A DNA stretch of 64,000 nucleotides from Candidatus Daviesbacteria bacterium RIFCSPLOWO2_01_FULL_39_23 (GCA_001776935.1 MFDN01000008.1:8998-72997), one strand, 5' to 3'; positions 5,257 to 33,619 are shown, numbered from the stretch's first letter. The notes: generated by a model from the letters alone, not told the origin. Translations and numbers: made by a program.

Positions 5257-6914
5257 TGTCTAACAATTTTGCTTTCTATTTAAAGTACCGCCCGCAGGTT
5301 CTTGATGAGCTGATTGGCCAGGAAGCTGTTAAGAAAACACTTCTTTCATCTTTTCAAAATAATAAACTGTCTCATGCGTATCTTTTTGTGGGCCCGCGCG
5401 GTACAGGTAAAACTTCAACAGCCAGGATTTTGGCAAAGATGGTTAATTGCGAAATGGCTTTTAGCGATTTGCCGTTGGCTGTTGGCAATGAAAAAGCGAA
5501 TAGCCAAAAGCTAACAGCCAGTAGCGAAATTCCATGCAACAAATGCGCTACCTGTTTATCAATTACAGATGGAAGCAATATGGATCTGATTGAAATTGAT
5601 GCTGCATCAAACAGAGGCATAGAAGATATCCGGTCTTTGCGTGATAAAATTAAATTGTCTCCAACCACCGGCAAAAAGAAAGTTTATATCATTGATGAAG
5701 TTCATATGCTGACTCCGGAGGCATTTAATGCCCTTTTAAAAACTTTGGAAGAACCTCCTGCTCATGCTTTGTTTGTATTGGCTACGACCGAAGCATCCAA
5801 GTTGCCTCAAACAATTCTTTCGCGGGTTCAAAGATTGGATTTTAAATTAGCAGAGTCTCAAGAGCTGGAGGAAGCCTTAAAAAAAATTATAAAAAGCGAA
5901 AAGGTGGAGATTGATGAAGAGGCTTTAAAAATTATTGCAAAAAAGGCAGAAGGTTCTTTTAGGGACGGAGTGAAGCTATTGGATCAGCTTGCTTCAATGG
6001 GAGAAAAAATCACCGTAAAGTTTGTAAGCGATAATTTTAGGTCATCGCAGTTTGAAAATATTTTAGATTTAATAAAAAATTTAAAAAATAAAAATGTTTC
6101 CGGAGGATTATTAAGTATCGGAAGACAAATAGAAAGCGGCGTAGATATAAAACAATTACTGCTTTCTTTGATGGATATTTTAAGAAGCTTAGTGCTTATA
6201 AAAAACGGCGTTGGTAAACAGTTGGTGAAAGGGTTGACTCAGGATAAATATACCGAGCTGGAAACTCTTGCAGAAGGTTTTGAAAATCATGATTTAATCA
6301 AAGATTTGGATATTCTGCAGCATGCCCTGGAGAAATTAAAATTTACTTCTATTCCTTCTCTGCCGCTGGAACTGGGTGTGGTTGAAATGTGCAATTCCAA
6401 AAATAAACCGTTGGACTATTTTCCTTTGGAAAAGAAACTGAGAGATTCTTCACCGGCAAAGCCGGTTCAGAATGACAATATAGAAGCTGCAGCTAATGAA
6501 CCAAAAGCTCAGGATTCTAATACTTTGAGTGCCGATGAGGTGCCGGCTGTTGATACTGCAGACTCCGATATTTTAAAACTAAAAGAAAAATGGACTTTTG
6601 TTTTAGAGACAGTCCGTTCTTTTAATTTTTCTTTGGAGGCACTTTTGCGGGTTATCAATATTAAAGAATGCACCCCGACTTCTGTTGTATTGGAGGTGCC
6701 GTATTCTTTTCACCAGCGGATTTTGGAAGCTCCAAAAAATAGGGATCTTATAGAGGGAGTATTTTCTGATATTTTAGGAAGAAGCATAAGGATATCTACA
6801 AAGCTGGGGAGCCGTTTGCCAAAAACGGAAGACGTTGCCAATATAGAAGTGGCGCAGGATGATGAAATTATAAAAGCAGCAGCAGAAATTTTTAATTCAG
6901 ATTCTATAAATTAA
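5256..6914 (+). CDS. dnaX: DNA polymerase III subunit gamma/tau
   Basis: AAA+ Walker A motif GPRGTGKTS, zinc module CNKCATC and an SRVQR sensor. The start overlaps the ybeY stop (TAATG). Confidence 0.85.
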   Translation: MSNNFAFYLKYRPQVLDELIGQEAVKKTLLSSFQNNKLSHAYLFVGPRGTGKTSTARILAKMVNCEMAFSDLPLAVGNEKANSQKLTASSEIPCNKCATCLSITDGSNMDLIEIDAASNRGIEDIRSLRDKIKLSPTTGKKKVYIIDEVHMLTPEAFNALLKTLEEPPAHALFVLATTEASKLPQTILSRVQRLDFKLAESQELEEALKKIIKSEKVEIDEEALKIIAKKAEGSFRDGVKLLDQLASMGEKITVKFVSDNFRSSQFENILDLIKNLKNKNVSGGLLSIGRQIESGVDIKQLLLSLMDILRSLVLIKNGVGKQLVKGLTQDKYTELETLAEGFENHDLIKDLDILQHALEKLKFTSIPSLPLELGVVEMCNSKNKPLDYFPLEKKLRDSSPAKPVQNDNIEAAANEPKAQDSNTLSADEVPAVDTADSDILKLKEKWTFVLETVRSFNFSLEALLRVINIKECTPTSVVLEVPYSFHQRILEAPKNRDLIEGVFSDILGRSIRISTKLGSRLPKTEDVANIEVAQDDEIIKAAAEIFNSDSIN

Positions 6915-6966
6915 TAGATTTCCCCTTGACAAAAAATATCTTCTAGTTAACAATACTTACATCTTT

Positions 6967-8256
6967 ATGGCATCGAAAGTTTTTAAATTAATAGCAGAAG
7001 AAGCTCATCGTCAAAAATACGGCCTTGAGATGATCCCCTCGGAAAATTATGTTTCTGAAAATGTTTTAAAAGCTTTGGGTTCAATACTTACTAATAAATA
7101 CTCTGAAGGTTTCCCCGGAAGAAGATATTACGGCGGCAATGAAGTAATCGATAAAATTGAAAATTATGCGGTAGAATTAGCCAAAAAGCTCTTTAAAGTT
7201 CCGGCTGCTTTTGTGCAAGCTTATTCAGGTTCTCCGGCAAATCAGGCTGTCACTATGGCTGTTTGCGAGCCCGGGGATGTGGTAATGGGATTGTCTCTTT
7301 CATCAGGAGGTCATTTAACTCATGGTGCAAAGCTCAGTTTTTCAAGCCTTTTTTACAAGGCAGTTAATTACTCTGTCGGTGAAGATTGGAAAATTGATTT
7401 TGATGAATTGGAAGAACTTGCTAAAAAACATAAGCCAAAATTAATTTGGGCCGGTACCACTGCTTATCCTTTTAAATTAGATTATAAAAAATTCAAGAAA
7501 ATTGCCGATGAAGTAGGGGCTACGCTGGTTGCAGATTGTTCTCACATTACTGGCTTAATTATTGGCGGAGTCCATCAGTCACCGGTACCTTACGTTGATA
7601 TTATTATGACTACAACTCATAAAACTTTAAGAGGGCCAAGAGGAGCAATAATTCTGGTGACAGAACGGGGACTTAAAAAAGACCCGGAAATAAAATCTAA
7701 AATTGAGAGGGCAATTATCCCAGGGTTACAAGGAGGACCTCATAATCACCAAACAGCAGCGATTGCTGTAAGTTTGGAAGAAGCACTAAAGCCATCCTTT
7801 AAAAAATATGCAGTTCAAGTTGCTGAAAATGCAAAAATTTTGGCAAAAGAATTGGGTACGGTTTCGGAAACCCATCTGGTGCTTTTAAGTTTAACTAAAT
7901 ACGGATATGGATTAGGTTATCAGGCGCAATACGCTTTAGAGGAAGCGGGAATTACTGTCAATAAAAATACTATACCCGGAGAACCGGCATCTCCATTTTA
8001 TCCTTCAGGAATTAGATTGGGTACGCCAGCTTTAACTACCCGGGGGATGAAAGAAAAAGATATGGTAAAAGTTGCGGGTTGGATAAAAAGAGTTTTAGAA
8101 GAAATTAAGGGATTGGATTTGCCGAAAGAACAGGATAAAAGAAAAGATTTCTTAAAAGAAGTTAAGGTGAAATTGGCCAAAAATAAGAATTTGAAGACTA
8201 TAAAAGCAGAAATTGAAAGATTTGCCGGTAAATTCCCGGTACCCGGAATCCGATGA
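6967..8256 (+). CDS. glyA: Serine hydroxymethyltransferase
   Basis: SHMT PLP-lysine context (HKTLRGPRG) and similarity along the full length. Confidence 0.95.
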   Translation: MASKVFKLIAEEAHRQKYGLEMIPSENYVSENVLKALGSILTNKYSEGFPGRRYYGGNEVIDKIENYAVELAKKLFKVPAAFVQAYSGSPANQAVTMAVCEPGDVVMGLSLSSGGHLTHGAKLSFSSLFYKAVNYSVGEDWKIDFDELEELAKKHKPKLIWAGTTAYPFKLDYKKFKKIADEVGATLVADCSHITGLIIGGVHQSPVPYVDIIMTTTHKTLRGPRGAIILVTERGLKKDPEIKSKIERAIIPGLQGGPHNHQTAAIAVSLEEALKPSFKKYAVQVAENAKILAKELGTVSETHLVLLSLTKYGYGLGYQAQYALEEAGITVNKNTIPGEPASPFYPSGIRLGTPALTTRGMKEKDMVKVAGWIKRVLEEIKGLDLPKEQDKRKDFLKEVKVKLAKNKNLKTIKAEIERFAGKFPVPGIR

Positions 8257-17768: not shown

Positions 17769-19173
17769 GAGACTCAGGCTGGGAGAAAAATGCGGAATAT
17801 TCGGAGTCATAGGAAAAGGTTTTGAGGCGGCCCGTTTAGTTCATCCGGGTCTTTGGGCCCTGCAGCATCGTGGTCAGGAATCTTCAGGAATCGCATCTTC
17901 AGACGGCAAAAAAATATTTCTTCATAAGGGAATGGGTTTGGTTTCCCATGTTTTTTCGGAAGAAGATCTTAAAGAATTAAAAGGATATCTGGCAGTCGGT
18001 CACAACCGTTATTCCACCTCAGGCGATTCATCTGCAACTCATGCACAGCCAATTTTAGAAAGGATTTCCGCTAACAAAAATATTGTTTTGGTTCACAATG
18101 GCAATCTTCCTACAACAAAAAAATTAGAAGAATTTTTAAAAAACGAAAAAATTTCAACGAGCGGACTCAATGATTCGGAGATGATTGCAAAATCTGTAGC
18201 TTTCTTTATGAAAAAAGGTCATTCTCTGGAAGCTTCAATTATAAAAGCTTATCCGTTGTTTACGGGCGTATTTTGTCTGCTGATTATGAATGAGCAAAAA
18301 ATAGTTGCCGTAAGAGACAGTTTTGGAATAAGACCCCTTGTTTTGGGTAAATTAAACGGCGGTCACATTGTAGCATCAGAAACCTGCGCGTTGGATATAA
18401 TCGGAGCAAAATTTTTAAGGGAAGTTAAACCAGGAGAGATGGTAACTATTTCTGATAAAGGTGTAAAAAGTTTTCAAATAGAAAAAGGAACGCAAAAGCT
18501 GGATGTTTTTGAGTTTATTTATTTTGCAAGACCGGATAGTTATATTTTAGGCAAAAGCGTAGATGCAGTCAGACAAAATCTTGGTATAGAACTGGCAAAA
18601 GAGAACAAAGTTTCCGCCGATGTGGTAATACCTGTGCCTGATTCTGCAATCCCTGCTGCTATTGGCTTTGCAAGGGAGTCTAATATACCGTTTGAGTTGG
18701 GGCTTATTAAGAACCGCTATATTCACAGGACATTTATCTCTCCGGAAGAGCATATAAGGCATAAAATAGTGCAGTTAAAACTTAATCCTATGCCGCATAT
18801 AATTTCCGGTAAAAGAGTGGTTATAGTGGATGATTCAATTGTTCGAGGCACCACTTCCCGTCAGATCATTAAGATGATAAGAAATGCCGGCGCAAAAGAG
18901 GTTCATTTACTGGTTTCTTCCCCGCCCTACAAATTCCCTGATTTTTATGGAATAGATACACCTTCCCAAAAGAAATTAATAGCATCGACTAAAAATATTA
19001 AGGAGATAAAAGAAGAATTAGGAGTTGATTCCCTGCACTATCTTTCTTATAAAGGTCTTATTAAGGCTGTTGGTTTACCGGAAAATTCCCTTTGTACAGC
19101 TTGTTTTACAGGTGATTACCCGGTGGATATTGGGGAGAGAAAAAAAGAAATTTCATATGATATTGTTCAATAA
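17767..19173 (+). CDS. purF: Amidophosphoribosyltransferase
   Basis: Ntn-hydrolase catalytic Cys after a short propeptide (MRLRLGEKCGIFGV). C-terminal PRTase domain. Confidence 0.9.
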   Translation: MRLRLGEKCGIFGVIGKGFEAARLVHPGLWALQHRGQESSGIASSDGKKIFLHKGMGLVSHVFSEEDLKELKGYLAVGHNRYSTSGDSSATHAQPILERISANKNIVLVHNGNLPTTKKLEEFLKNEKISTSGLNDSEMIAKSVAFFMKKGHSLEASIIKAYPLFTGVFCLLIMNEQKIVAVRDSFGIRPLVLGKLNGGHIVASETCALDIIGAKFLREVKPGEMVTISDKGVKSFQIEKGTQKLDVFEFIYFARPDSYILGKSVDAVRQNLGIELAKENKVSADVVIPVPDSAIPAAIGFARESNIPFELGLIKNRYIHRTFISPEEHIRHKIVQLKLNPMPHIISGKRVVIVDDSIVRGTTSRQIIKMIRNAGAKEVHLLVSSPPYKFPDFYGIDTPSQKKLIASTKNIKEIKEELGVDSLHYLSYKGLIKAVGLPENSLCTACFTGDYPVDIGERKKEISYDIVQ

Positions 19174-21073
19174 AAAGATTGTAGTACTTATATCCGATTC
19201 GGGAACAGGGACAAATTTAAATGCAATTATAAACGGGGTAAAATCAGGCAAAATTAAGGCAGATATTTTATCAGTAATAAGCGATACTTCCAAAGCTTTA
19301 GGTTTAAAATGGGCCCGGAAAAATAAAATTCCCACCCAAATTGCGGCAGATAAAAATAAACTTCTGCAGATTTTAAGAAAATTAAGCCCGGATTTTGTTT
19401 GTTTGGCTGGATGGAAACAAATAATTTTAGATGAAGTAATTGATGAGTATCCCAGTAAAATTTTAAATACTCACCCGGGGCTTATTCCGGATACCTTAGA
19501 TGGTGTTGTAAAAAATCCGGACGGAACAAAGGCGTTGTGGAATAAAGGGAAATTTACACAAAATGCAATGCAGGTATTTTTTGAAAAAAAAGCAACATAT
19601 GCCGGCTGTACCAATCACTTTTTGTCACATGAATTTGATTTTGGTCTGGTTTTAGGAAGATGTTTTGAGAAGATTCGAAAAAATGATACCCCTGTTATTC
19701 TATATAAAAGATTGAAGGTAAAGGAAAATAAATTATATGTAGAAGTGTTGTCAAAATTATGCAAAGAGGTAACTGTTTTAGTGGTGGATGGCGGGGGCAG
19801 GGGAGCAGCACTTGTAGATAAATATAGTCAAAGTAAACAGGTCGGGAAAATATTAGCAGTACCGGGCAATGATTTGATGCAAATTAATACAAAAAGTAAA
19901 ATTAAAACTTATCCTGATTTAAAAACTACTTCGGTTGAGGAAATAATAAAAATTTGCAAAAAAGAAAAGGTAGATTTGGTGGATGTGGCGCAGGATAATG
20001 CAGTGGAAGCTGGACTGGTGGATCTATTGAATAAAGAAGGGATTAAAGCAGTGGGGCCAACAAAAGGAGCCGGGAAAATTGAATGGGATAAAGCCTGGGC
20101 CCGGGAATTTATGAAAAAGCATGGCATTCCTGCACCAAAGTTTTATGTTTTTAATTCCCAAAAAGGCGGGATAGATTTTGTAAAAAAACATCAGCAAAAA
20201 TGGTTTGTCAAAGCTGCAGGGCTTGCGGAAGGAAAAGGGGTGATCCCGGCAACAAATACTGCTGAGGCAATTTCTGCCATTGAAGAAATGCAAAAATTTG
20301 GCAATTCCGGTAAATTCTACCTTTTAGAGGAATGGCTTGAAGGAGAGGAATTTTCTGCATTTGCTTTAGTTGATGGCAGCAATTTTCAAGTAGTCGGGTT
20401 TGCTCAGGATTACAAGCGGGTATTTGACGGAGACAAAGGGTCAAATACAGGAGGAATGGGATGTGTATCAAATCCTTTGATAATGGATGAGAATATAAAA
20501 CAACAGACACAAGCAGTTTTTCAAAGAGTTGTAAATGGTTTAAAGAAAGAAAATCGTCCCTACAAAGGTGTTTTATATCTTGGAGGTATGGTAGTTGATA
20601 GTAAGGTGTATGTTATAGAATTTAATGCCAGATGGGGTGATCCTGAGGCAGAAGTGATTTTGTCTTCTTTGAAAAATGATTTATTGGAAGTAAACAGCGC
20701 TATAATTTCAGGTAATATAAAAAAATTAAAAATTAAAATTGACAAAAATATAAGGGTAGCAGTGGCAGCAACAGCCAAAGGTTATCCCCAGGATTACAAA
20801 ACAGTAAGAGGTAAAAGAATATTCGGTATAGAAAAAGTTTTAAAAATTTCCGGAATAAAAATTTACGGCGCCGGTATTAAGAAAGCCGGTGAAAGTTATA
20901 TTGTAAATGGTGGCCGGATTTTATTTGTTGTGGGTTCGGGAAAAGATGTAGTGGAGGCCAAAAAGAAAGCATATGAAGCTATGAAATTTATAAATATTGA
21001 AGGAGATAGCCTACATTACAGAACAGATATTGGTTGGAGGGATGTTGAGCGGATGCAAAAGGATAAAAAATGA
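19157..21073 (+). CDS. purND: Fused GAR formyltransferase / GAR synthetase (PurN-PurD)
   Basis: Single ORF. The N-terminal about 200 aa carry PurN motifs (NTHPGLIP, HFLSHEFDFG). The C-terminal about 430 aa are the PurD ATP-grasp domain (VLVVDGGGRGAAL...). The ATG at 19157 overlaps the purF end. Confidence 0.8.
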   Translation: MILFNKKIVVLISDSGTGTNLNAIINGVKSGKIKADILSVISDTSKALGLKWARKNKIPTQIAADKNKLLQILRKLSPDFVCLAGWKQIILDEVIDEYPSKILNTHPGLIPDTLDGVVKNPDGTKALWNKGKFTQNAMQVFFEKKATYAGCTNHFLSHEFDFGLVLGRCFEKIRKNDTPVILYKRLKVKENKLYVEVLSKLCKEVTVLVVDGGGRGAALVDKYSQSKQVGKILAVPGNDLMQINTKSKIKTYPDLKTTSVEEIIKICKKEKVDLVDVAQDNAVEAGLVDLLNKEGIKAVGPTKGAGKIEWDKAWAREFMKKHGIPAPKFYVFNSQKGGIDFVKKHQQKWFVKAAGLAEGKGVIPATNTAEAISAIEEMQKFGNSGKFYLLEEWLEGEEFSAFALVDGSNFQVVGFAQDYKRVFDGDKGSNTGGMGCVSNPLIMDENIKQQTQAVFQRVVNGLKKENRPYKGVLYLGGMVVDSKVYVIEFNARWGDPEAEVILSSLKNDLLEVNSAIISGNIKKLKIKIDKNIRVAVAATAKGYPQDYKTVRGKRIFGIEKVLKISGIKIYGAGIKKAGESYIVNGGRILFVVGSGKDVVEAKKKAYEAMKFINIEGDSLHYRTDIGWRDVERMQKDKK

Positions 21074-23790
21074 TACAAAAAGTAAGGGTGCAGACTATTG
21101 GACAATCAAACATTAAAGTTTACCGCCTTGAAGGTATATCAGAAAAAGAAGCCAAACTATTGGCGGAAAAATTACTTTCTGAAAAAATAAACCAAAATTA
21201 TACAATTAACCGACCGCTGGCTTCTGCAAGAAGTATCATTGAGATTGCGTATAAACCAGGAGTAATGAATCCGGAAGTTGATTCGATTATGAAAGCAGCA
21301 GCTGATCTTGGCGTAAAGCTCAAAGCTTGCGATAGCTCTACAGAATATCCTTTTAATGTTTCGAAAAAAGAAGCTTTAAAAATAATTCAGAAACAAAGAA
21401 TTTATAACCCCTTAATAGAACACATTGTTGAAGAAGAACCGCAGACCCTGTTTATAAGAGGAGAATCCGGTAAAACTCAAATTATTCCAATTAGAAATTT
21501 AAGCGAGATCCAATTAATGGATTTATCGAAAAATAAACTTTTTCTTAATTTGGATGAGATGAAAACAATCCAACGGTACTATCAAAAGATAAAAAAAGAT
21601 CCGACTGATTTGGAGCTTGAGACTCTTGCCCAAACCTGGAGCGAGCATTGCGCACACAAAACCTTTAAGGCAAAACTCGTTGTTGATGGTAAAACTAAAG
21701 AACCCTTATTTACGCGTATTAAAAAAGAAGCCTTAAAACATAATAAAAATATAGTTTCGGCTTTTGTAGATAATGCCGGAGTGATGGATTTTTATGATGG
21801 TTGGGCGATTAATGGCAAGGCGGAAACCCATAATGCTCCTTCTGCCATTGAACCATATGGCGGGGCAATGACAGGATCCGGAGGGGTTTTCCGGGATGTG
21901 GTGGCAACCGGGCAGGGCGCTAAGGCTTTGGTATCAACAGATATATTTTGTCTGGCCCCGCCGGATTTACCAAAAAGTAATTTACCGGTAGGAACCCTGC
22001 CTCCTGATTATATTTTAAAAAGAGTGGTTTCTGCTGTGCGGGATTATGGGAATAGAATAGGGATTCCTACTAACAACGGATCTTTTCATTTTCATGAAGA
22101 TTTTAGAGCAAAGCCGGTCGTTTTAGTAGGATCATATGGAATGCTGCGCAAAAATATGAGCAAACAGGGATCTCCTAAAATAGGAGATGTGGCAGTAGTA
22201 GTTGGTGGCAGGACCGGTAGGGATGGTATACATGGGGCAACATTTTCCTCCGGTGAGATGAGCGAGAAAACTATAGAAGTTCATGCTACTGCAGTACAGA
22301 TTGGCAATGCTATTGAGGAAAAAAGAACTTTTGATGCAATATTGGAAGCCCGGGATAAAGGGATAATTCGGGCAGTTCAGGATTTAGGGGCAGGGGGATT
22401 TTCTTCTGCTATTGGAGAGATGGGTGCAGAAGTTGGAGTTAAAGTTTTTCTTGAAAAAGCCCCTCTAAAGTATCAGGGATTGGCCCCCTGGGAAATTTGG
22501 GTATCAGAATCCCAGGAAAGGATGCTGGTAATTTTGGATAAGAGAGATATAAAGAAATTTTTAGAGATTTGTAAAAAATACAATGCAGAAGCAGTAGAAA
22601 TTGCAGAGTTTGACGGCAGTAAAAGATTGAAAGTCTTTTATGGGAAAGAAAAGGTTGGAGATTTGGACATGAAGTTTTTGTATGAAGGTTTGCCCCAAAG
22701 GGTGATGAAAGCCCTTCGACTCCCTTCGGTCGCTCAGGGTCTGCGACAACAAACTCAAAACCCGACAACGCAAAGAGAATGGATAAAGGGTTTGGAAGAA
22801 GTTTTGTCTCATGGTGATATTAATTCCAAAGAACCGATTCTAAGGATGTATGATCATAATGTTCAAGGGACAAATGCCTTGCATCCATTCGGAGGAGTGG
22901 GAATGGATGGCCCAAATGATGCAGCAGTTGTAAAACCGCTGTTAGATAAACCTTATGGTTTAATTGTGGCACACGGCTTAAATCCAAAACTTACCAATAT
23001 TGATGCTTACCGGGGAACTATTTGGTCGGCAACAGAAGCAATCTCAAATTACGCGGCAGTAGGCGGGGATTATAAAAATGCATCACTGATTAATAATTAC
23101 ATTTGGCCGTTTCCGGATGAGGAGTGGATGGGGAAGTTAGACCAATCAGTGACGGCGGTTTGTGATTTTATGAAAGCCTTAAAGATTCCGGTAATTTCCG
23201 GAAAGGACAGCTTGTCTGCAACTTATCGGGGATCGAATGGATTTGTTCTGCACAGTCTGCCGACTTTTGTGATGTCCGTATTCGGAAAAATTCCCGATGT
23301 TAAAAAAACCGTTTCTTCGGATTTTAAAAAAGTCGGATCAATGATTGTATTGGTTGGACAGCTAGCTCACCTCGGAGGTGAGACTAAGTTGTCGTCTGTA
23401 CACCTCCGAGGTGTGACTAGGGTTGACCTAAAATTATTGCCAAAAGTTTTGGAAAGTTTGCATAAGGCGATTGCTGGTGGAAAAGTTTTGTCCTGTCATG
23501 ATGTTTCAGAGGGGGGTTTAATAACCGCTATTTTTGAAATGTGTGTGGGAGGAAACTGCGGCGCAGAAATTAAGGTTTTACCAAAAGATGTTTTTGCAGA
23601 AACCGCCGGGTGTTTTATTGTAGAGTTGGAGGACGAAATTTCTGCTGAGAAATTATTTAAAGGGATTCCTTATAAGATTTTAGGTAAAACTATTAAAGAG
23701 GAAAAACTGACAGCAAAGGGATTATTTACAGCTGATATGAAAAGCTTACAGGAAGTTTGGCAAAAACCAATGAAGGAGATATTCGGATGA
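21070..23790 (+). CDS. purL: FGAM synthase PurL with a PurS-like N-terminal extension
   Basis: SEHCAHKTF motif and PurM-like duplicated domains. The first about 100 aa are PurS-like. An in-frame tandem palindromic insert lies at 23368-23419. Confidence 0.85.
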   Translation: MIQKVRVQTIGQSNIKVYRLEGISEKEAKLLAEKLLSEKINQNYTINRPLASARSIIEIAYKPGVMNPEVDSIMKAAADLGVKLKACDSSTEYPFNVSKKEALKIIQKQRIYNPLIEHIVEEEPQTLFIRGESGKTQIIPIRNLSEIQLMDLSKNKLFLNLDEMKTIQRYYQKIKKDPTDLELETLAQTWSEHCAHKTFKAKLVVDGKTKEPLFTRIKKEALKHNKNIVSAFVDNAGVMDFYDGWAINGKAETHNAPSAIEPYGGAMTGSGGVFRDVVATGQGAKALVSTDIFCLAPPDLPKSNLPVGTLPPDYILKRVVSAVRDYGNRIGIPTNNGSFHFHEDFRAKPVVLVGSYGMLRKNMSKQGSPKIGDVAVVVGGRTGRDGIHGATFSSGEMSEKTIEVHATAVQIGNAIEEKRTFDAILEARDKGIIRAVQDLGAGGFSSAIGEMGAEVGVKVFLEKAPLKYQGLAPWEIWVSESQERMLVILDKRDIKKFLEICKKYNAEAVEIAEFDGSKRLKVFYGKEKVGDLDMKFLYEGLPQRVMKALRLPSVAQGLRQQTQNPTTQREWIKGLEEVLSHGDINSKEPILRMYDHNVQGTNALHPFGGVGMDGPNDAAVVKPLLDKPYGLIVAHGLNPKLTNIDAYRGTIWSATEAISNYAAVGGDYKNASLINNYIWPFPDEEWMGKLDQSVTAVCDFMKALKIPVISGKDSLSATYRGSNGFVLHSLPTFVMSVFGKIPDVKKTVSSDFKKVGSMIVLVGQLAHLGGETKLSSVHLRGVTRVDLKLLPKVLESLHKAIAGGKVLSCHDVSEGGLITAIFEMCVGGNCGAEIKVLPKDVFAETAGCFIVELEDEISAEKLFKGIPYKILGKTIKEEKLTAKGLFTADMKSLQEVWQKPMKEIFG

Positions 23791-24584
23791 CCCTTCGACA
23801 TCGCTTGAGACAAGAAGTTAATGTTTGCATATTAAAATCAGATGGGACTAATTGTGATAATGAGCTGTTTTATGCATTTAAAAAAGCAGGAGGGAATCCG
23901 GAGCTTGTTCATGTTAACGAGCTGCGGGATAAAAGTGTGACTTTAAAAGATTTTGATATTTTGGCTTTTCCGGGGGGATTTTCTTATGGTGATGATATTG
24001 TATCCGGCAAAATTTGGGCTATCGAAATGATTAGTTTTTTAAAAAAAGAAATCGAAGATTTTAGAAAAAAAGGCGGATTGATTTTAGGAATATGTAATGG
24101 ATTTCAGGTTTTGGTAAGGACCGGTCTATTGCCGTTTGGAAACTTAGGCAAAATGGATGCCACACTTGCAAACAATGACAGCGGACATTTTGAATGCAGG
24201 TGGGTGGATTTAAAAACGGAAAAAAGTAAATGCGTATTTTTAAAAAATATAAATATTGGGCATTTTGCCGTAAATCACGGAGAAGGAAAATTTTTTACGG
24301 ATGTAAAAACTTTAAAAGAAATTGAGGCAAAAAATTTAGTGGTATTCCGCTATGTTGATGAAAACGGCAATCCCACCCAAAATTATCCTCAAAACCCCAA
24401 CGGGTCTTTAAATGCCATTGCCGGGGTTACAGATCCATCCGGAAGAATTTTAGGACTCATGCCTCATCCGGAAAAATTTGTGGATATTACCCAATATCCA
24501 AATTGGAGAAGAGAAAAGATATTAAAGCCCCACGGATTATTTATCTTTGAAGAAATGGTAAAGTATGTTAAGGAGAACAAATGA
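23787..24584 (+). CDS. purQ: FGAM synthase glutamine amidotransferase subunit
   Basis: Class I GATase triad context (GICNGFQ, MPHPE). ATGA overlap with purL. The N-terminus carries a GC-rich extension encoding MTLRHRLRQE. Confidence 0.85.
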   Translation: MTLRHRLRQEVNVCILKSDGTNCDNELFYAFKKAGGNPELVHVNELRDKSVTLKDFDILAFPGGFSYGDDIVSGKIWAIEMISFLKKEIEDFRKKGGLILGICNGFQVLVRTGLLPFGNLGKMDATLANNDSGHFECRWVDLKTEKSKCVFLKNINIGHFAVNHGEGKFFTDVKTLKEIEAKNLVVFRYVDENGNPTQNYPQNPNGSLNAIAGVTDPSGRILGLMPHPEKFVDITQYPNWRREKILKPHGLFIFEEMVKYVKENK

Positions 24585-26152
24585 TAATACTTGTAGATTT
24601 TGGATCACAAACAGCACATTTAATAGCAAGAAGGATAAAAGAGTTGGGAACAGAAGTGGAAGTGGTAGACCCTGAAGGAGCGATGGATATATTGGATTCC
24701 CGCTTTCGCGGAAATGACAGAAGAAGAAGCGGGAATGACAAGGGTGCAAAGGGGATAATTTTTTCCGGCGGCCCGGCATCTGTATATCAGGAAGACTCGC
24801 CTTCAATTGATCCGAAAATTTTTATGATTGGTATTCCGATATTGGGAATTTGTTACGGACAGCAATTGATGTGCCACCTTTTAGGCGGAGAGGTAAAAGC
24901 GGGGTTTAAGAAAGAGTATGGACCGGCAGTATTAAGTTCAAAGTTAAAAGTTAAAAGTTCAAAATTATTGGTAGGGGTGCCAAGCGGAATTACGGTTTGG
25001 ATGAGTCACGGGGATGAGGTGGTAAAGATTCCTCAGGGTTTTGAAACTAAGGCTTTTACGAAAACAATTCCTCATGCAGTAATTGAAAATAAAGATAAAA
25101 AAATATACGGGATACAATTTCATCCGGAGGTAATACACACGGAATTCGGAGAACAGCTTTTGGAAAACTTCCTAAAAATATGCAATCTTGAAATTAAAAG
25201 AAGAGTGATTAATAAAGAGTTTGTAGAAAATATTATCAAAGATATTAAAGATTCTGTGGGAGAGGAAAAAGCAATTTGTGCTTTATCCGGGGGAGTAGAT
25301 TCATCAGTTGCTGCATTACTTGTACACAAAGCAATCGGCAGAAATTTAATTTCCTGCTACATTGATTCAGGGTTGATGAGAGACGGGGAAACTTCTGCTT
25401 TAAGAAAAATTTTTCAAAAAGATTATCAAATGGGTATTCAAATTATTGATGCAAAAAATGAATTTTTAGATTCCTTAAAAGGAGTAATTGATCCGGAAGA
25501 AAAAAGAAAAAAGATCGGGAAAGCTTTTATAGATGTTTTTGAAAAAATTGCTAAAAAAAGCAGGGCAAAACTTTTGGTGCAGGGGACAATTTATCCTGAT
25601 GTGATAGAGTCTGCAGGAACTAAGCATTCGCAGGTTATAAAATCGCACCATAATGTCGGCGCACTCCCAAAGAATATGAACCTTGCGCTAATTGAACCAT
25701 TAAGAAATTTCTATAAAGATGAAGTAAGAGCAATCGGTAAAATTTTAGGTCTGCCGGATGAAATTATCAACAGACAGCCTTTCCCGGGTCCCGGACTGGC
25801 AGTCAGAATTATAGGAGACGTAACAGAAGAAAAACTTGAGATTTTAAGAAAAGCCGATAAAGTTATTCAGGAGGAAATAAAAAAGACTGATCTGGAAAAA
25901 AGCCTTTGGCAAATCTTTGCAGTATTTACCGGAATTAAAACTACAGGAGTCAGGGGAGATGAAAGGGCGTATGGAGAAACTATTGCCATAAGAGCAATAG
26001 AAGCCAAAGATGCCATGAGTGCAAATTTTGCCAAACTTCCATATGAACTATTGGAGAGAATTTCCTCAAGAATTGTTAATGAAATCCGTGAGGTAAACCG
26101 GGTAGTTTACGATATCACCAACAAACCTCCCGCTACTATGGAGTGGGAGTAG
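24581..26152 (+). CDS. guaA: GMP synthase (glutamine-hydrolysing)
   Basis: GATase domain, ATP-PPase SGGVDSSV motif and a C-terminal dimerisation domain. ATGA overlap with purQ. Confidence 0.9.
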   Translation: MIILVDFGSQTAHLIARRIKELGTEVEVVDPEGAMDILDSRFRGNDRRRSGNDKGAKGIIFSGGPASVYQEDSPSIDPKIFMIGIPILGICYGQQLMCHLLGGEVKAGFKKEYGPAVLSSKLKVKSSKLLVGVPSGITVWMSHGDEVVKIPQGFETKAFTKTIPHAVIENKDKKIYGIQFHPEVIHTEFGEQLLENFLKICNLEIKRRVINKEFVENIIKDIKDSVGEEKAICALSGGVDSSVAALLVHKAIGRNLISCYIDSGLMRDGETSALRKIFQKDYQMGIQIIDAKNEFLDSLKGVIDPEEKRKKIGKAFIDVFEKIAKKSRAKLLVQGTIYPDVIESAGTKHSQVIKSHHNVGALPKNMNLALIEPLRNFYKDEVRAIGKILGLPDEIINRQPFPGPGLAVRIIGDVTEEKLEILRKADKVIQEEIKKTDLEKSLWQIFAVFTGIKTTGVRGDERAYGETIAIRAIEAKDAMSANFAKLPYELLERISSRIVNEIREVNRVVYDITNKPPATMEWE

Positions 26153-26264: not shown

Positions 26265-27325
26265 TCTAGGATCCGATACATTCCGTACACTTAAGACATT
26301 TAATTGAACGGCAGATATAATGGCTGCTACATGAGAGCCTACAAGATACTCCCGGTAGAGATTAAAGTTAGGGATTTCAAACTATCCAAGAAAGCTTTAA
26401 AAAGATTGGAGTGGATGGATTGGTATTTTAGCCATGGCATGAATGCCAGGTTAACATGCAGACACTTTGGAATCTCCCCAGATACCTTCTACCTCTGGAA
26501 GAGGAAATTTAATCCATATAACTTAAGTACACTTGAATTCAATACTAAACTCTGTACTCCTCACAACCTCCGGGAGATGACTACAAGTCCAAAGGTGCTT
26601 AAGCTGATATATGACATTAGGTCAAATGATTTAACCAAATCCAAGTATGAAATTGAGGAAGAGTTAAAAAGGTCAGGCATTAAAATCTCATCCAAAGTAA
26701 TCCAGAAAGTCATTAACAGACATATTGAGCTTAAAAACACTGAGCATATTAGAAAGATTAGAAAATACAGGAATTACAAGATAGCCAGGGTTAAAGCTGC
26801 ATTGGAGCTTAAAGAGAAAGATTTAGGATCACTGGTTCAGATTGATACCAAACACCTGTATATTTTAGGACAGAGATTTTACATCTATGTAGCCATTGAT
26901 TGTAAATCCAGGTTAGGGTTTGTGTATGCATACAAATCATGCAACTCCACCAATGCAGCAGACTTCCTTTTAAAAGTCATTGACTACTTTCCATTCACAA
27001 TTTCAGCTGTTAATACAGACAACGGACCGGAGTATCTGCTTAAATTTCATGAGCTGACAGAGCAGTTAGGTATTCCTCACTACTTTACCCATCCCCATAC
27101 CCCTAAAATGAACTCCAGAGCTGAAAGGTTAATTAAGACACTGGAATATGAATTCCTTCATTACAGGGATCTTTTGCCTGAGCTTCAAGAAGTTAGAAAT
27201 ATATGCCCATGAGTTTAATGATCATTACAACAACCACAGATTCCACCAAGCCATCCACTACCAAACCCCCAGGGAGTATGTTACAAGTTACCTACAACAG
27301 AAAGGAGTGGTGTACGGTATCTAGG
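26265..27325 (+). mobile_element. IS481-family insertion sequence with 6-bp TCTAGG target-site duplications
   Basis: TCTAGG lies at 26265-26270 and again at 27320-27325. Imperfect terminal inverted repeats are present (..gatacattccgtacac / gtgtacggtatc). The element encodes one HTH + rve(DDE) transposase. Confidence 0.7.
26304..27324 (+). pseudogene. DDE transposase (rve integrase core), frameshifted near 27195-27215
   Basis: The 302-aa frame ends at RNICP*. The +1 frame continues with the canonical C-terminal motif (YAHEFNDHYNNHRFHQAIHYQTPREY) up to the TAG at 27322-27324. Confidence 0.55.
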
Positions 27326-27341: not shown

Positions 27342-28088
27342 TTGACAATACCCTATAGATTTGATAAGATACACGACAATATGATTGAAAGAGCTTTTAA
27401 TGAAGCATTACTACATAAAGGTAACAAAAAAGATGCACTTAGGGAATTTGCCATCTCTCAAGCAAGGCATATTCTTCAAGCTGCCGGCGTAGTTGATCCC
27501 GCAATTAAAGACCATGGAGTAGCCGTAAAACCTGAAGAATCAGTTGAAAAACCTTTTTACATGATCCCCGAAGGAGAAGTTGTTAAATTTATCCAAGAGA
27601 TCGGCGGTAAATCAGCGGAACAATTAGAGGCTGAAGTAAAATCTACCGGAAGGGAAGTCACTATATATGCTTCTGATTCGATTCATAGTCCTAAATTTGA
27701 AGTTCTTGATGAAGTTACTCCTCAAGAGTTAGCTAAATTTCCTGTTAGAGCCTTAAGATTCAGAGGTAATCCAACTACCAGACAATTATATGAAAAAATC
27801 CCGCAAACCAGATGTAGAATAGATGGAGAGGAATATATATTAGAACTTCCTAGAGCAGAAGTTGGACCCCACAAAGCTATAGCAGATAAAGACCAAGCTT
27901 TAAATGATTGGTATTATGTTATGCATGAGCCGATTACCGGCCGTCACGGCGATCCGGGCGTGTTCGAGGTCGGACGCAATTCTGATGGCCGGTTCCTCTA
28001 CGGCCCATGGGCTAGCCCTGACGACAGGTGGGCTCCTGACGATCAGTTGGTTGTGGCTCTCCGCAAGCTTGAATCTGTAAAACCTTAA
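27342..28088 (+). CDS. DGR target (variable) protein; its C-terminal 45 aa are encoded by the VR
   Basis: 248-aa ORF with a TTG start. The VR occupies codons 198-242. No signal peptide is seen. The gene begins 17 nt after the IS element. Confidence 0.75.
   Translation: MTIPYRFDKIHDNMIERAFNEALLHKGNKKDALREFAISQARHILQAAGVVDPAIKDHGVAVKPEESVEKPFYMIPEGEVVKFIQEIGGKSAEQLEAEVKSTGREVTIYASDSIHSPKFEVLDEVTPQELAKFPVRALRFRGNPTTRQLYEKIPQTRCRIDGEEYILELPRAEVGPHKAIADKDQALNDWYYVMHEPITGRHGDPGVFEVGRNSDGRFLYGPWASPDDRWAPDDQLVVALRKLESVKP
27933..28067 (+). repeat. DGR variable repeat (VR), 135 bp
   Basis: 116/135 identity to the TR. All 19 mismatches fall at TR adenines. Confidence 0.85.
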
Positions 28089-28409
28089 ACTCTTTGATTC
28101 TTACAATTAAAGAGTACTCTTTGAGTTTTTAATACTTTGTTTCTTTACCGCGTAGCGGCCGCTACAAATTTTTGATATATTACTTTTAGATTGGTTGTAT
28201 TGAACGGCTACGGCTTTTCAAAATCATTTTGGCAAATATATATTGAGAGCTTAGAAGGTTAAGGCTTTCTGGGGAGTAATAGTATTTGTCTTTAAAAAAG
28301 AATTACTTGGTATGGTATGCTTGCAGGATTTATTCCGCAAATAAAATACAGCCCTTTGTCTAAAGATTAGCTTTTTACATGGGCAGTGATAATAGATGGC
28401 ATATCATAC

Positions 28410-28544
28410 ATTACCGACCGTAACGGCAATCCGAACGTGTTCAAGGTCGAACACAATTCTAATGGCCGGTTCCTAAACGGCAAATGGGCTAACCCTGACA
28501 ACAGGTGGAATCCTGACAATCAGTTGGTTGTGGCTCTCCGAAAG
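28410..28544 (+). repeat. DGR template repeat (TR), 135 bp
   Basis: Non-coding copy of the VR. The variable positions are A, mostly in AAY codon contexts of the VR frame. Confidence 0.85.
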
Positions 28545-28871
28545 TTATTCTTTTCCCCGCTTTATTGGCGGGGTTTTTGTTGGTATTTCAAGGCTTTTTT
28601 TCCAGCCGTAAAGCATTTTACCAATTTCATCCAGTTTAGTGGACATACTCTCATATTGTCTATTAGAAATGAATTTTCCTTCCCAACAAGTTGTGACTAG
28701 AAATTTAAGTATATCTGCTGTAAAAATACATTCACTTAATAAGACTAATTTTTTATCCTTACCACTAAAATATGATGTGTATGAACTTTCCAGAAGATCA
28801 AGGAATTTATTTTCAATTCTTATACCCAGCGTGTAACGGGCAGTTCTAGGAATATGAGGCACAATACCCAT
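28545..28871 (-). CDS. avd: Avd-like four-helix-bundle DGR accessory protein
   Basis: About 108 aa from MGIVPHIPRTARYTLG... to ...KLDEIGKMLYGWKKSLE. This matches the four-helix-bundle/Avd (23S rRNA IVS protein) family pattern. It is encoded on the opposite strand to the VR, TR and RT. Confidence 0.6.
   Translation of the reverse strand: MGIVPHIPRTARYTLGIRIENKFLDLLESSYTSYFSGKDKKLVLLSECIFTADILKFLVTTCWEGKFISNRQYESMSTKLDEIGKMLYGWKKSLEIPTKTPPIKRGKE
28555..28580 (+). terminator. Rho-independent terminator-like hairpin immediately after the TR
   Basis: CCCCGC-tttattg-GCGGGG followed by TTTTTGTTGG. Confidence 0.5.
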
Positions 28872-28916
28872 CCAAAACAGATATCCCTCTTTGATTTTAC
28901 TGAGGATCGAGGTTTT

Positions 28917-28938
28917 AGAGAGAGAGAGAGAGAGAGAG
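28917..28938. repeat. (AG)11 dinucleotide microsatellite in the divergent avd/RT intergenic region
   Basis: agagagagagagagagagagag read directly. Confidence 0.9.
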
Positions 28939-28979
28939 TACGAAGACCGTGCCATATTAAATTTAATAGTATCATCTCT

Positions 28980-31188
<2,209 letters not shown>

Positions 31189-31232: not shown

Positions 31233-32249
31233 ATGGGAAATAAAAGTTACACAATTGTAACGCTTGGTTCTCACTCCGCCCTGCAAATTTTAAAAGGGGC
31301 AAAAGATGAGGGTTTTCAAACTGCAGTAGTAGTTACACCTGATCGAATCGCACTTTATTCTTCATATAAAAATTTTATTGATGAAATTTTAGAAGTTAAA
31401 TCCTGGAAAGGTTTTCCTGCTTTAGAAAAAGAACTTATTAAAAGAAATACAATCCTGATTCCGCATGGTTCATTTGTGGCATATTTGGGGATGGAGCAAA
31501 ATAAAAAAATGAAGGTCCTATACTTTGGCAACAAGGCTGTTTTGGATTGGGAAGAAAACCGGAAAATGCAAAGGACCTGGATGGAAAAATCCGGGATCAA
31601 AGTCCCGCATCGGTTCAGAAGAGGAGACAAGATAGACCGTGCGGTAATTGTAAAATCTTATGGAGCTGCCGGCGGTAAAGGATATTTTACTGCCACAAAC
31701 CAAAAAGAATTTGACGAAAAGTTAAAAAACTACAACGAAGAAAAATTTATTGTGCAGGAATATGTTATCGGGGTGCCTGTTTATTTCCATTTTTTCTATT
31801 CACCTTTGACTAAAAAAGTGGAGATAATGAGTTTAGATAAACGTTATGAAACAAATGTTGACTCGCTTGGAAGAATCCCTGCTAAAAATCAAAGGGGTTT
31901 GGATATTGAACCCTCGTTTGAAGTAGTTGCCAATATTCCTATGGCCATAAGGGAATCTCTTTTGGCCCAAGGTATTTCCATGGCAGAAAGAGTTATTAAA
32001 ACTTCCCAAAAATTAATTCCGGAGAAAGGGCTTTTCGGGCCGTTTTGTCTGGAAACTATTATTACTTCAACTGAGGAAATATATGTAATAGAAATTTCTG
32101 CAAGGATTGTGGCAGGGACTAATTGTTTTATAGACGGCTCGCCTTATACATATTTATTGTATGATGAGCCCATGTCTACAGGAAGAAGAATAGCCCGGGA
32201 AATAAAATATGCCATAAGACAAAATAGATTAAAGGAGGTTTTGGATTAA
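31233..32249 (+). CDS. purP: Archaeal-type FAICAR synthetase (formate-dependent AICAR formyltransferase, ATP-grasp), paralog 1
   Basis: LGSHSALQILKGAKDEGF N-terminus and an ATP-grasp core. Similar to the archaeal PurP family. Confidence 0.8.
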   Translation: MGNKSYTIVTLGSHSALQILKGAKDEGFQTAVVVTPDRIALYSSYKNFIDEILEVKSWKGFPALEKELIKRNTILIPHGSFVAYLGMEQNKKMKVLYFGNKAVLDWEENRKMQRTWMEKSGIKVPHRFRRGDKIDRAVIVKSYGAAGGKGYFTATNQKEFDEKLKNYNEEKFIVQEYVIGVPVYFHFFYSPLTKKVEIMSLDKRYETNVDSLGRIPAKNQRGLDIEPSFEVVANIPMAIRESLLAQGISMAERVIKTSQKLIPEKGLFGPFCLETIITSTEEIYVIEISARIVAGTNCFIDGSPYTYLLYDEPMSTGRRIAREIKYAIRQNRLKEVLD

Positions 32250-32409: not shown

Positions 32410-33519
32410 ATGGCTAACAGATACACAATTGCTGTACTTGGTTCCCACTCTGCTTTGGATGTTTGTCGCGGAGCAAAAGATTTGGGGTTTAAGACTTTAG
32501 TAGTTGTACAAAAAGGCAGGGATAAAACTTATGCAAAATATTATAAAACGCAAAGTGGTAGTCCTTCGGTCGGTTGCGTGGATGAGGTCATTGAGTTAGA
32601 AAAGTTTGCAGATATTATTAAGCCGGAAATACAGGAAGAATTATTAAAAAGAAATTGTATTTTTATTCCCCATAGGTCTTTTGAGGTTTACATTAATGAT
32701 TATGACGCCATAGAAAAAAAGTTTAAAGTTCCGATGTTTGGGAACCGATTTTTACTAAGGTGTGAAGAACGGGGAGTAAAACCAAACCAGTATGACCTCT
32801 TAGATAAAGCAAATATCCGATACCCCAAACAATTCAATCCGCCAGCTGGCGGACCAAAAGATATAGACAGGCTTTGCATTGTTAAAGTTTTGGAAAAGGA
32901 GCGGGGGTTTGAAAGGGCATTTTTCTTTGCAGAATCTTTTGAAGAATATAAAATTGGCGTCACACAGGGGCTTGGCTTAGGAAAATTTACAGAAGCGCAG
33001 ATTAAGGGAGCAATAATAGAGGAATTTATTGTTGGTGTGCAGGTAAATTTTAATTTCTTTTATTCGCCGGTTAACAATCGATTGGAGCTGATTGGAACAG
33101 ATACAAGAAGACAAACTAATATAGAAGGCCTGACAAAATTGCCATCTGTTTATGAAGGAGAGTTGATTAAAAAAATCGGTGTTAAATATGAAGAAGCCGG
33201 GCATATTGCGGTGACTGTTTTGGAATCATTATTGGAAGATGCATTTGCTATGGGGGAGCAATTTGTGGAAGCTTCCAAAGAATTATTTAAGCCGGGAGTA
33301 ATAGGTCCGTTTGGTTTACAAACTATGATTACTGCGGGACCTCCTAAAAAAGAAATTATTGTATTTGATGTCTCACCCAGAATGCCGGGAAGCCCGGGAA
33401 TTTTTGCCACCCCTTACAGTGGGTATTTATACGGACAAAATATCAGCATGGGCAAAAGGGTGGCAATGGAAATAAAAGAAGCAATTGAAGAAAGAGAATT
33501 GGAAAAGGTTCTAACGTAA
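32410..33519 (+). CDS. purP: Archaeal-type FAICAR synthetase PurP, paralog 2
   Basis: VLGSHSALDVCRGAKDLGF N-terminus, co-linear with paralog 1. About 10 aa are inserted by a GC-rich palindromic segment at 32548-32579. Confidence 0.8.
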   Translation: MANRYTIAVLGSHSALDVCRGAKDLGFKTLVVVQKGRDKTYAKYYKTQSGSPSVGCVDEVIELEKFADIIKPEIQEELLKRNCIFIPHRSFEVYINDYDAIEKKFKVPMFGNRFLLRCEERGVKPNQYDLLDKANIRYPKQFNPPAGGPKDIDRLCIVKVLEKERGFERAFFFAESFEEYKIGVTQGLGLGKFTEAQIKGAIIEEFIVGVQVNFNFFYSPVNNRLELIGTDTRRQTNIEGLTKLPSVYEGELIKKIGVKYEEAGHIAVTVLESLLEDAFAMGEQFVEASKELFKPGVIGPFGLQTMITAGPPKKEIIVFDVSPRMPGSPGIFATPYSGYLYGQNISMGKRVAMEIKEAIEERELEKVLT

Positions 33520-33525: not shown

Positions 33526-33619
33526 TGTCATTCTGATCCGCCAGCAACTGCGTAGCTGTGGGCGGAGAAGAATCTCAAGATTAGTCTAGAGATCCTTCAC
33601 TAATCATTCAGGATGACAG
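33526..33619. repeat. Intergenic repeat element, copy 2
   Basis: Core tgtcattctgatccgccagcaactgcgtagctgtgggcggagaagaatctc and terminal inverted repeat tgtcattctga / tcaggatgaca. Confidence 0.5.

Follow-up and report, generated by a model that had tools for sequence, protein, structure and literature searches.

The stretch of DNA described here, referred to as the window, comprises 64 kb of the genome of a Candidatus Daviesbacteria bacterium, a groundwater organism of the Patescibacteria or candidate phyla radiation (CPR). It contains dnaX (5256-6914), a purN-purD fusion (19025-21073), purL (21070-23790), purQ (23757-24584), guaA (24581-26152) and two archaeal-type purP genes (31233-32249 and 32410-33519, the latter termed purP2). 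Pfam confirms the genes that had been named in a first-pass annotation. The window also carries short GC-rich units, several of them hairpins, which lie in frame within dnaX, purL, purQ, guaA and purP2 and as dimers in two intergenic gaps. These units are the subject of this report. The window has a GC content of 38% and a positive GC skew, and most genes are found on the plus strand. Among species-representative genomes, the closest matches of PurL are metagenome-assembled genomes of Candidatus Daviesbacteria and other Microgenomates, at 73-77% amino-acid identity. In addition, contig k127_795130 (SRR1658473, PRJNA268031), from the Rifle groundwater metagenome data set, overlaps window positions 1-7664 with one mismatch. 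The comparison set consisted of about 60 relatives from the Daviesbacteria and Microgenomates, whose loci (labelled L001-L066) amount to about 600 kb. All copy numbers given for the window cover its 64 kb alone.

Tagged hairpin repeats occur in the window in excess over chance, differ between related species, and sit both in intergenic gaps and in frame in the loops and linkers of essential proteins. The recurrent unit is bracketed by GA dinucleotides and has the order YGTC, AT(Y)C(Y), GA, inner hairpin, GA, (R)G(R)AT, CTC. Units of this GA type, the commonest locally, start with AT. Their outer stem is 5 bp long, a GA/GA bracket surrounds an inner hairpin whose loop leaves 3 to about 18 bases unpaired, and the tail is CTC in all cases. 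A second type is a contiguous palindrome, ATTCCCGC-GAAr-GCGGGAAT, which ends in a CCA tail. Counted with a strict pattern (YGTC-AT..stem..AT-CTC/CCA), there are 7 tagged hairpin units in the window, compared to 0.11 +/- 0.33 in 200 dinucleotide shuffles. The tag TGTC precedes all 7, at 2541 and 33526 on the plus strand and at 2655, 6477, 24719, 24740 and 33618 on the minus strand.

Looser detectors were tried and dropped. Generic scanners for a tag plus stem or for a GA bracket gave a high background (7, 12 and 13 matches where 3.8, 7 and 7.3 were expected), and were replaced by the stricter patterns. For k-mers that recur in the window and the purL loci, matches between homologous coding sequences hid any other signal. 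The first-pass annotation had pointed to GC-rich patches. GC-richness alone proved not to be diagnostic, with 32 segments of 40 nt at 65% GC or more; several of those inspected are ordinary coding sequence, such as a conserved glycine-rich PurL motif.

Two dimers occupy intergenic gaps between co-directional genes, and both carry inverted terminal units with the tags outermost. Dimer A lies at the proS-tig junction (2541-2655), with the left unit TGTCATCCTGA[TCCGCC..GGGCGGA]GAAGGATCTC and the right unit GAGATTCTTCGTCGCAGACTCCTCAGAATGACA. Dimer B lies at the purP2-purH junction (33526-33618), where a left unit almost the same as that of dimer A is followed by the right unit GAGATCCTTCACTAATCATTCAGGATGACA; its DNA fold has z = -4.9. 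Compared by eye, the left units (2541-2591 and 33526-33576) are nearly identical over about 50 nt, including the long inner hairpin TCCGCCAGyAACTGCrTAGCTGTGGGCGGA, a likeness that suggests a recent copying event in this genome. Dimer A is missing from the proS-tig junction of L065, where the gap is 36 nt. Dimer B is missing from L062 and L063, in which purP2 and purH abut or overlap. A unit like the right unit of dimer B is found in frame in the PurL linker of L004.

Single units are also found inside genes. In DnaX, a GA-bracketed tagged unit lies in the linker between domain III and the C-terminal domain (6442-6477, minus strand), with the sequence TGTC ATTCT GA ACCGGC TTT GCCGGT GA AGAAT CTC. 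It is in frame, the plus strand reading LRDSSPAKPVQND, folds with z = -4.0, and falls between the Pfam domains at residues 268-383 and 441-520. The same linker in relatives holds other units, for example VILSEAKDL and LRDSSPPSADQND. This unit and the two dimers are the clearest members of the class, and they were missed by the first-pass annotation.

In GuaA, a unit of the CGTC-1 or NTS-like type (24693-24719, minus strand) reads TGTC ATTTCCGC GAAA GCGGGAAT CCA, and its plus strand encodes LDSRFRGND. Its stem, ATTTCCGC/GCGGGAAT, starts with AT, pairs at 7 of 8 positions, encloses a 4-nt loop and is followed by the CCA tail; the patch folds with z = -3.3. A second copy of the 3′ half of the unit is found at 24729-24740 on the minus strand (GCGGGAATGACA, peptide SGND). 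It is a direct repeat of GCGGrAATGACA, situated 21 nt 3′ of the first copy. The insert, whose peptide segment is DSRFRGNDRRRSGNDK, adds 12-13 aa compared to the GuaA structures in the PDB, and 12 of 19 relatives are without it. L005 and L003 have one complete unit at this site. Across species, the GuaA loop contains at least three unit types and, in L010, a remnant, all in the same orientation and all ending ..ATGAC shortly before the motif GIIFSGGP. The peptides encoded in relatives include DSRLRGND and VIPANAGIQ.

These units have a well described counterpart in the CGTC-tagged repetitive extragenic palindromic sequences (REPs). CGTC REPs consist of a CGTC, TGTC or CCTC tag, a stem of 8-9 bp that starts with AT, a loop of 4-5 nt and a CCA tail (Di Nocera, De Gregorio & Rocco 2013, PMC3733652). 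They occur in tens to thousands of copies per genome, mostly as dimers, between co-directional or convergent genes and near the upstream stop codon, and are sometimes intragenic; no dedicated transposase is known (PMC3733652). The CGTC-1 family comprises Neisseria dRS3 and the Rickettsia conorii palindromic element RPE-6, while CGTC-4 corresponds to RPE-4 (PMC3733652). The intragenic CGTC-1 peptide DSRFRGND has been catalogued in R. conorii RC0249 and S. wittichii Swit_2580, and other catalogued intragenic peptides are VIPAKAGI and WIPAFTGMT (PMC3733652).

The guaA unit fits the CGTC-1 rules for tag, stem, loop and tail, and encodes the very peptide DSRFRGND. More generally, the local units share with CGTC REPs the YGTC tag, the stem starting with AT, a 3-nt tail, the dimeric arrangement, co-directional intergenic sites near the stop codon of the preceding gene, and in-frame copies in enzymes of DNA and RNA metabolism, which is a published trait. 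They differ in three respects. The host is a CPR bacterium, and its phylum is not one of the five from which CGTC repeats have been listed. Most local units combine an outer stem of 5 bp with a GA/GA bracket, an inner hairpin of variable length and a CTC tail, whereas the published form has a contiguous stem of 8-9 bp, a loop of 4-5 nt and CCA. Finally, the CCCT-type unit in PurL described below lacks a stable stem.

Another comparison is offered by NTS, a 28-nt extension of dRS3 (CGTCATTCCCGCGMAVGCGGGAATCYRG), and its nuclease SsnA (Nat Commun 2025, PMC11893778). SsnA is described there as a single-domain GIY-YIG protein of 94 aa, which binds the hairpin when the DNA is single-stranded and cleaves immediately upstream of it, and for which restriction of transforming DNA has been proposed as the role in Neisseria (PMC11893778). 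Genes of the ssn type typically have their own motif on both sides, in an NTS-ssnA-NTS layout like that of an insertion sequence, and the motifs have been summarised in the SRM pattern HGTCWYN(0-2)YYVSBRHN(0-5)WNVSBRGN(0-2)RNCYNB (PMC11893778). Of the 28 positions of the NTS consensus, the guaA unit shares 25 and the unit of the relative L003 shares 27. The strict SRM pattern has no match in the window and was too strict as a detector of the local variants; the guaA unit fails it at the last base only. In the relatives' loci it has 4 matches compared to 0.6 expected, of which those in L003, L025 and L061 are clear units and that in L007 seems to be a chance match. In contrast to the NTS/SsnA system as described there, an ssn-like gene was not seen in the window or the relatives' loci, the GA-type unit lies outside the SRM pattern, and in-frame colonisation of essential genes is not mentioned in the accessible part of PMC11893778.

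Two further systems are similar in part. RPE-1 elements, like the local units, are palindromic repeats that lie in frame in unrelated housekeeping genes with a patchy distribution among related species, and they are described as tolerated because they sit in permissive parts of the proteins. RPE-1 is longer, at about 100-150 bp. These longer palindromic insertions are distinct from the small RPE-4 and RPE-6 units (Ogata et al. 2000/2002; Claverie & Ogata 2003, as cited in PMC3733652). The GTAG REPs and bacterial interspersed mosaic elements, which are mobilised by REP-associated tyrosine transposases (RAYT), are likewise short hairpin repeats that are often dimeric and occasionally intragenic, with recognition of a single-stranded hairpin and an adjacent tetranucleotide tag; the tag found here is YGTC, not GTAG. 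Pfam scans of most large open reading frames (ORFs) of the window found no RAYT or IS200/IS605-type Y1 transposase. A literature search found no paper that ties REPs, RPEs or miniature inverted-repeat transposable elements to Patescibacteria or CPR.

We consider it probable that this genome, as well as those of its relatives, has been seeded with non-autonomous units, short and rich in GC, that belong to the CGTC-tagged REP superfamily (also described as Ssn-related motifs) and persist as intergenic dimers, single in-frame units and remnants. Selfish DNA of this kind is known; the host lineage is new, and the unit architecture is a variant. The likeness to Rickettsia palindromic elements in frame in housekeeping genes, which the first-pass annotation had proposed, is correct at the family level for the guaA element, with its catalogued peptide and the varied units in the loops of relatives. 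The notion of one family did not hold. More than one family is present: CGTC-1 or NTS-like units, GA-bracketed tagged units, CCCT-stem units, an untagged hairpin with 13-bp arms, and an AT-richer insert in the DnaX zinc module.

The same protein loops hold different GC-rich units in different relatives, and this is seen in the PurL linker and further PurL positions, the GuaA loop, the DnaX linker and zinc module, and CysS. In the PurL linker, L004 has GTCATTCCGAGCGAAGCGAGGAATCTC..GGGATTCTTCACTAATCGTTCAGAATGAC and L005 has GTCATTCCTGCGAATGCAGGAATCC..GGATCCCCGCCTGCGCGGGGATGAC, while L009 has a dimer that encloses a third, nested unit. The DnaX zinc-module insert of the window (5451-5525, plus strand), about 20-25 aa in length, is AT-richer and only weakly palindromic (z = -2.0). 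It had been described as an insertion of about 25 aa, and it does add 20 aa compared to E. coli gamma/tau; 31 of 60 relatives have none, and the remainder have 9-42 residues at this position. The insert is homologous to that of L065. At this position L064 has a tagged dimer of canonical form, inside which a further unit is nested. The family and origin of the insert in the window are uncertain.

Other repeat-rich loci were observed in the relatives. In L025, an intergenic cluster at 900-1380 contains at least four repeat units of three types (CCCT, GA and CGTC-1), and a GC-rich stretch of about 200 nt adjoining it (1000-1200) might be a structured RNA. A further hairpin family, GCCTGCC..GGCAGGC, which encodes the peptides GLPVGRQ, PPTGRQG and PSGRQIS, is in frame in L002, L032 and others. 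Its sites align to residue 528 of PurN-PurD and residues 260-263 of PurQ in the window, where no copy was seen.

PurL carries two quite different patches. The one that folds best is an untagged hairpin element at 23365-23416, with the peptide AHLGGETKLSSVHLRGVT and a perfect 13-bp inverted repeat whose arms, CACCTCgGAGGTG (23368-23380) and CACCTCcGAGGTG (23401-23413), enclose a 20-nt loop. The pair of CACCTCsGAGGTGnGACTA units that the first-pass annotation had reported here is present, at 23368 and 23401, and the DNA fold of 23362-23420 has z = -6.5. The inserted segment can be recognised by HLGGETK..HLRGVT, and HLGGETKLSSVHLRGV is a further peptide string from PurL. The hairpin is found at this site in only 6 of about 20 Daviesbacteria (the window, L002, L046, L007, L005 and L004). 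L005 retains the ancestral MAGSIYL loop beside it, and therefore the element is an insertion. The arm sequence recurs at three or more further PurL positions in relatives. No tag is conserved among relatives at this hairpin, which belongs to a different family from the tagged units.

Conservation of pairing in this hairpin also bears on whether the units are host-selected signals in mRNA or DNA, such as translational pause sites, RNase processing or stabilising sites, or terminators and attenuators in a purine operon, and not selfish DNA. Across 5 orthologues, pairing is kept in 98.5% of cells, and in 3 of 13 pairs both partners have changed so as to compensate each other, a value that 6 of 500 shuffles of this set of 5 sequences reached. 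L046 has CACCCCCGGGGTG in both arms, and the central pair is G..C in the window and C..G in the others. Similarly, L046 and L007 differ in the inner stem of their guaA units, where G and C have been exchanged in a compensatory manner. In a quasi-palindrome, however, such changes can also come from template switching or from conversion of one arm by the other. The position of units at domain boundaries and of dimers between co-directional genes, the latter as published for REPs (PMC3733652), also fits such signals. Against this, most close relatives are without each element while gene order and domain structure are unchanged, the type of unit found at any one site varies, decay or truncation has affected several copies, and Rfam at gathering thresholds has no match anywhere in the window. 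Host-selected signals are thus an unlikely explanation, and insertion of REP-like units is preferred.

Several patches are better described as remnants. Immediately 3′ of the purQ start codon lies CCCTTCGACATCGCTTGAGAC (23791-23811, plus strand; peptide TLRHRLRQ), which includes CCCTTCGAC and is probably a decayed copy of the CCCT unit type found in the PurL linker. The PurQ N-terminus is lengthened by about 6 aa, and about 36 of 41 relatives are without the insert, having M-K-x only. At the same position L009 has CCCTTCGACTTCGCTCAGGGC, and L005, L020 and L047 have other GC-rich units. The patch folds weakly (z = -1.9). In PurP2, the sequence AGTCCTTCGGTCGGT (32560-32575, plus strand; peptide SPSVG) adds 3 aa, and folds no better than shuffled sequence (z = -0.8). 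The corresponding site in L062 is AGTCCTTCGACAAGCTCAGGACGACCTTCGGTCGGT, from which the window differs by the loss of 21 nt between two CCTTCG repeats. The patch therefore looks like what remains of a unit after a 21-nt deletion. Here, 16 of 72 aligned sequences exceed the 10-residue baseline, mostly by an insert of the PSTSSGR type. The ACGCAA/TTGCGT bracket that the first-pass annotation had placed around this insert is present as a string, but is not conserved (L062 has ACTCAA/TTGTGT). Units decay through duplication and through deletion between internal repeats.

The patch on which the first-pass annotation centred, here termed the focal patch, lies in the inter-domain linker of PurL. PurL itself is 906 aa long, and an N-terminal extension of about 150 aa precedes its linker domain. 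The focal unit (22712-22748, minus strand) has the core CCCT-GA-GCGACCGAAGGGAGTC-GA-AGGG at 22712-22739, and its plus strand reads ALRLPSVAQGLRQ. Its stem is CCCT/AGGG only. On the minus strand a TGTC precedes the core by 5 nt (plus-strand GACA, 22745-22748), so that the tag is not adjacent to the stem. The 28-nt core is identical at 26 of 28 bases to an intergenic copy in the Curtissbacteria contig L043, and at 25 of 28 to a copy nested in the tagged dimer of the DnaX zinc module of Daviesbacteria L064. A looser motif of the CCCT class (CCCTTCGrC..CTCAGGG) has 1 match in the window compared to 0.01 expected, and 12 in the relatives' loci compared to 0.1. At the orthologous site of L014, 33 of 36 positions are identical, while the flanking coding sequence is about 75% identical as counted from the alignment, with most synonymous sites differing. 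An earlier description of the patch as a unit with a 9-nt internal duplication was dropped, as L043 and L064 have the same long inner segment.

For this patch, as for those of purQ and purP2, the alternative is an ordinary, fast-evolving linker or loop that has drifted GC-rich and shares 9-10-mers with other genes by coincidence. The strings on which the first-pass annotation relied are all where it placed them, including CCCTTCGAC at 22712 and 23791, CCTTCGGTCG at 22723 and 32563, the guaA strings and the TAGCGA repeats of dnaX. As evidence for a family, these shared words did not survive comparison with dinucleotide shuffles, since within the window they occur at background. The focal patch has 8 10-mers in common with the rest of the window, compared to 5.6 +/- 2.6, and 23 9-mers, compared to 17.8 +/- 3.4. 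Tests of the recurrence of single words seem significant because the words were chosen post hoc, and such expectations are valid only for words fixed beforehand. A third copy of CCCTTCGAC, which the first-pass annotation did not list, is found at 30898 in an AT-rich stretch of purA, and many GC-rich segments are plain coding sequence. Moreover, the patch folds no better than shuffles (z = -0.4) and adds no net length. From GLPQR to SKE the linker measures 49 aa, the shortest relatives having 48 aa, and no gap interrupts its alignment with T. thermophilus PurL (3VIU).

What an ordinary linker does not explain is that the 28-nt core recurs at 25-26 of 28 bases at unrelated positions of other genomes, in a motif class that is enriched about 100-fold, or that the patch is better conserved to L014 than its flanks, synonymous sites included. 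It also leaves unexplained the purP2 patch, one clean 21-nt deletion away from the full unit of L062, and the canonical units of guaA, dnaX and the intergenic dimers. We regard drift in an ordinary linker as quite unlikely, and assign the focal patch to the repeat family as a genuine member of a CCCT-stem subtype, even though it has neither fold nor lengthening effect. This assignment is made because copies exist in relatives, not because of shared words. The focal patch is nevertheless a weak, non-hairpin member, among the weakest of the element class. Situated in a hypervariable linker, it has lost, or never possessed, a stable hairpin.

The general claims that the patches form hairpins, encode extra residues and are lineage-specific insertions were thus borne out in part. 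Hairpins are formed by the second PurL element and the guaA patch, and weakly by the zinc module and the purQ start, but not by the focal and purP2 patches. Extra residues, missing in many relatives, are encoded in guaA, the DnaX zinc module, purQ, purP2 and the second PurL element, but not in the focal patch.

Local origin, by slippage and intramolecular template switching in permissive loops that converge on similar palindromes without transposition, is very improbable: the duplicated half unit of guaA and the purP2 deletion between direct repeats show that such events take place, and Di Nocera et al. (PMC3733652) leave ongoing de novo formation of such repeats open, but near-identical units of 27-40 nt occur in unrelated genes, intergenic regions and different phyla, where a 27-mer has at least 120 exact copies in metagenomes and NTS is matched at 25-27 of 28 bases, and independent local origin cannot yield the near-identity over about 50 nt of the left units of dimers A and B. 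As the sole source it is contradicted, and it is plausible only for later rearrangements.

In addition to the lack of fold, length and word sharing in the focal patch, other observations weigh against seeding by mobile REP-like units. The patterns used for the enrichment counts were written after examples had been seen, and 64 kb of the genome is visible, so that unit counts are window counts. The GA-bracketed type fails both the published stem and loop rules of CGTC REPs and the published SRM pattern. No direct repeat that could be a target-site duplication or insertion scar flanks dimers A and B or the dnaX and guaA units. The sole candidate for a target-site duplication is the TAGCGA pair that flanks the zinc-module insert, and it was not seen in L065. 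The argument for mobility therefore comes from the patchy distribution alone, and part of that patchiness could reflect one old insertion per site followed by later losses. As for a mobilising gene, neither the window nor about 600 kb of the relatives' loci yielded a RAYT or other candidate. A motif scan and tblastn with a consensus sequence likewise gave no GIY-YIG gene in the window and L001-L066, and the contigs in which the GIY-YIG association described next was observed all belong to other organisms and mostly have 50-65% GC.

A candidate partner nuclease is suggested by these other organisms. The GA-type 27-mer GTCATYCTGAGCGAAGCGAAGRATCTC has at least 120 exact matches in metagenome contigs, most of which have 50-65% GC, and therefore the GA-type unit is not specific to CPR. 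In 4 of the 120 contigs among the matches listed, a GIY-YIG ORF of about 90-120 aa lies within about 200 nt of a GA-type unit. The domain was confirmed by Pfam in L070, L084 and L177, while the copy in L135 has an in-frame stop and was identified by tblastn only. In L135 and L177, units are found on both sides of the GIY-YIG gene, and in L177 they are inverted relative to each other. This arrangement is the same as the published NTS-ssnA-NTS layout. In L084 (686-1022) and L177 (12120-12471), the GIY-YIG ORF reads into the adjacent GA-type unit, which supplies its last residues, RDSSLRSE, and a TGA stop codon. A weak tblastn match to GIY-YIG in L025 was discarded as a translated repeat unit with no gene. 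A protein search with the GIY-YIG sequence of L070 returned few named sources, which were Bacteroidales and thus uninformative for CPR. As neither the window nor the relatives' loci showed such a gene, its connection with this organism is one that we infer.

On the preferred reading of non-autonomous, CGTC-related units, new copies would be made and inserted by a process that uses single-stranded hairpin DNA and depends on a factor acting in trans, most likely a small Ssn-type GIY-YIG nuclease encoded elsewhere in the genome. Selection would then remove intragenic copies that are out of frame, contain a stop codon or fall in structured parts of the protein, and only copies in permissive loops of essential genes would stay. 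Later slippage, deletion between short internal repeats and conversion between copies would account for the remnants and for the replacement of one unit type by another at fixed sites. The presence of different unit types at one site may reflect site preference, or conversion of an old resident unit by other copies in the genome. A more far-reaching proposal is possible, but we hold it to be doubtful. It states that CPR bacteria harbour an active hairpin-repeat system with an Ssn-type (GIY-YIG) nuclease as its driver, that the GA-bracketed unit is a new recognition-motif class outside SRM with bases conserved across phyla, and that units repeatedly arrive, are converted and decay at a few fixed places (the PurL linker, GuaA residues 40-58, the PurQ N-terminus, and the linker and zinc module of DnaX), which would be a main source of insertions and deletions in the essential enzymes of these minimal genomes.

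The surroundings of the units have features of their own. The de novo purine pathway is near-complete in this CPR bacterium, at 17767-40151, with purF, the purN-purD fusion, purL, a separate purQ, guaA, purA, two purP genes and purH, purB, purE, purC, prs and purM. Between guaA and purA lies a diversity-generating retroelement (27342-29921). The most GC-rich patch of the window, at 27933-28067 in the C-terminal part of an ORF of unknown function (27342-28088), recurs at 28410-28544 with 86% identity. All mismatches are A in the second copy, as for template repeat and variable region, and a reverse-transcriptase ORF follows downstream (28854-29921). A relationship of the GC-rich patches to this retroelement was considered and rejected; it accounts only for the patch at 27920-28045. 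Immediately 5′ of it, an ORF at 26304-27212 has an rve (DDE integrase/transposase) domain, and together the two form a mobile island within the purine cluster, where the GC skew flattens. A tandem, low-complexity, GC-rich run (CCAAGyCCAGTyCCGACT..) at 48603-48682, in an ORF without Pfam match (48321-48872), appears unrelated to the hairpin units.

Palindromic repeats that lie in frame within essential genes had until now been a curiosity of Rickettsia and a few proteobacteria, and a CPR case with an identical peptide shows that they are far more widely spread. In the purine-cluster neighbourhood of the relatives, whose genomes have about 38% GC, 41 of 97 insertions of 5 aa or more have a GC content of at least 0.5. 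Much of the variation in length among CPR orthologues may therefore be due to such repeats. The repeat segments are not homologous protein sequence, and so they should be masked in annotation, alignment and phylogenomics of CPR. Finally, the GA-type units beside GIY-YIG genes widen the set of hairpin motifs that possibly pair with the Ssn single-stranded-DNA nucleases.

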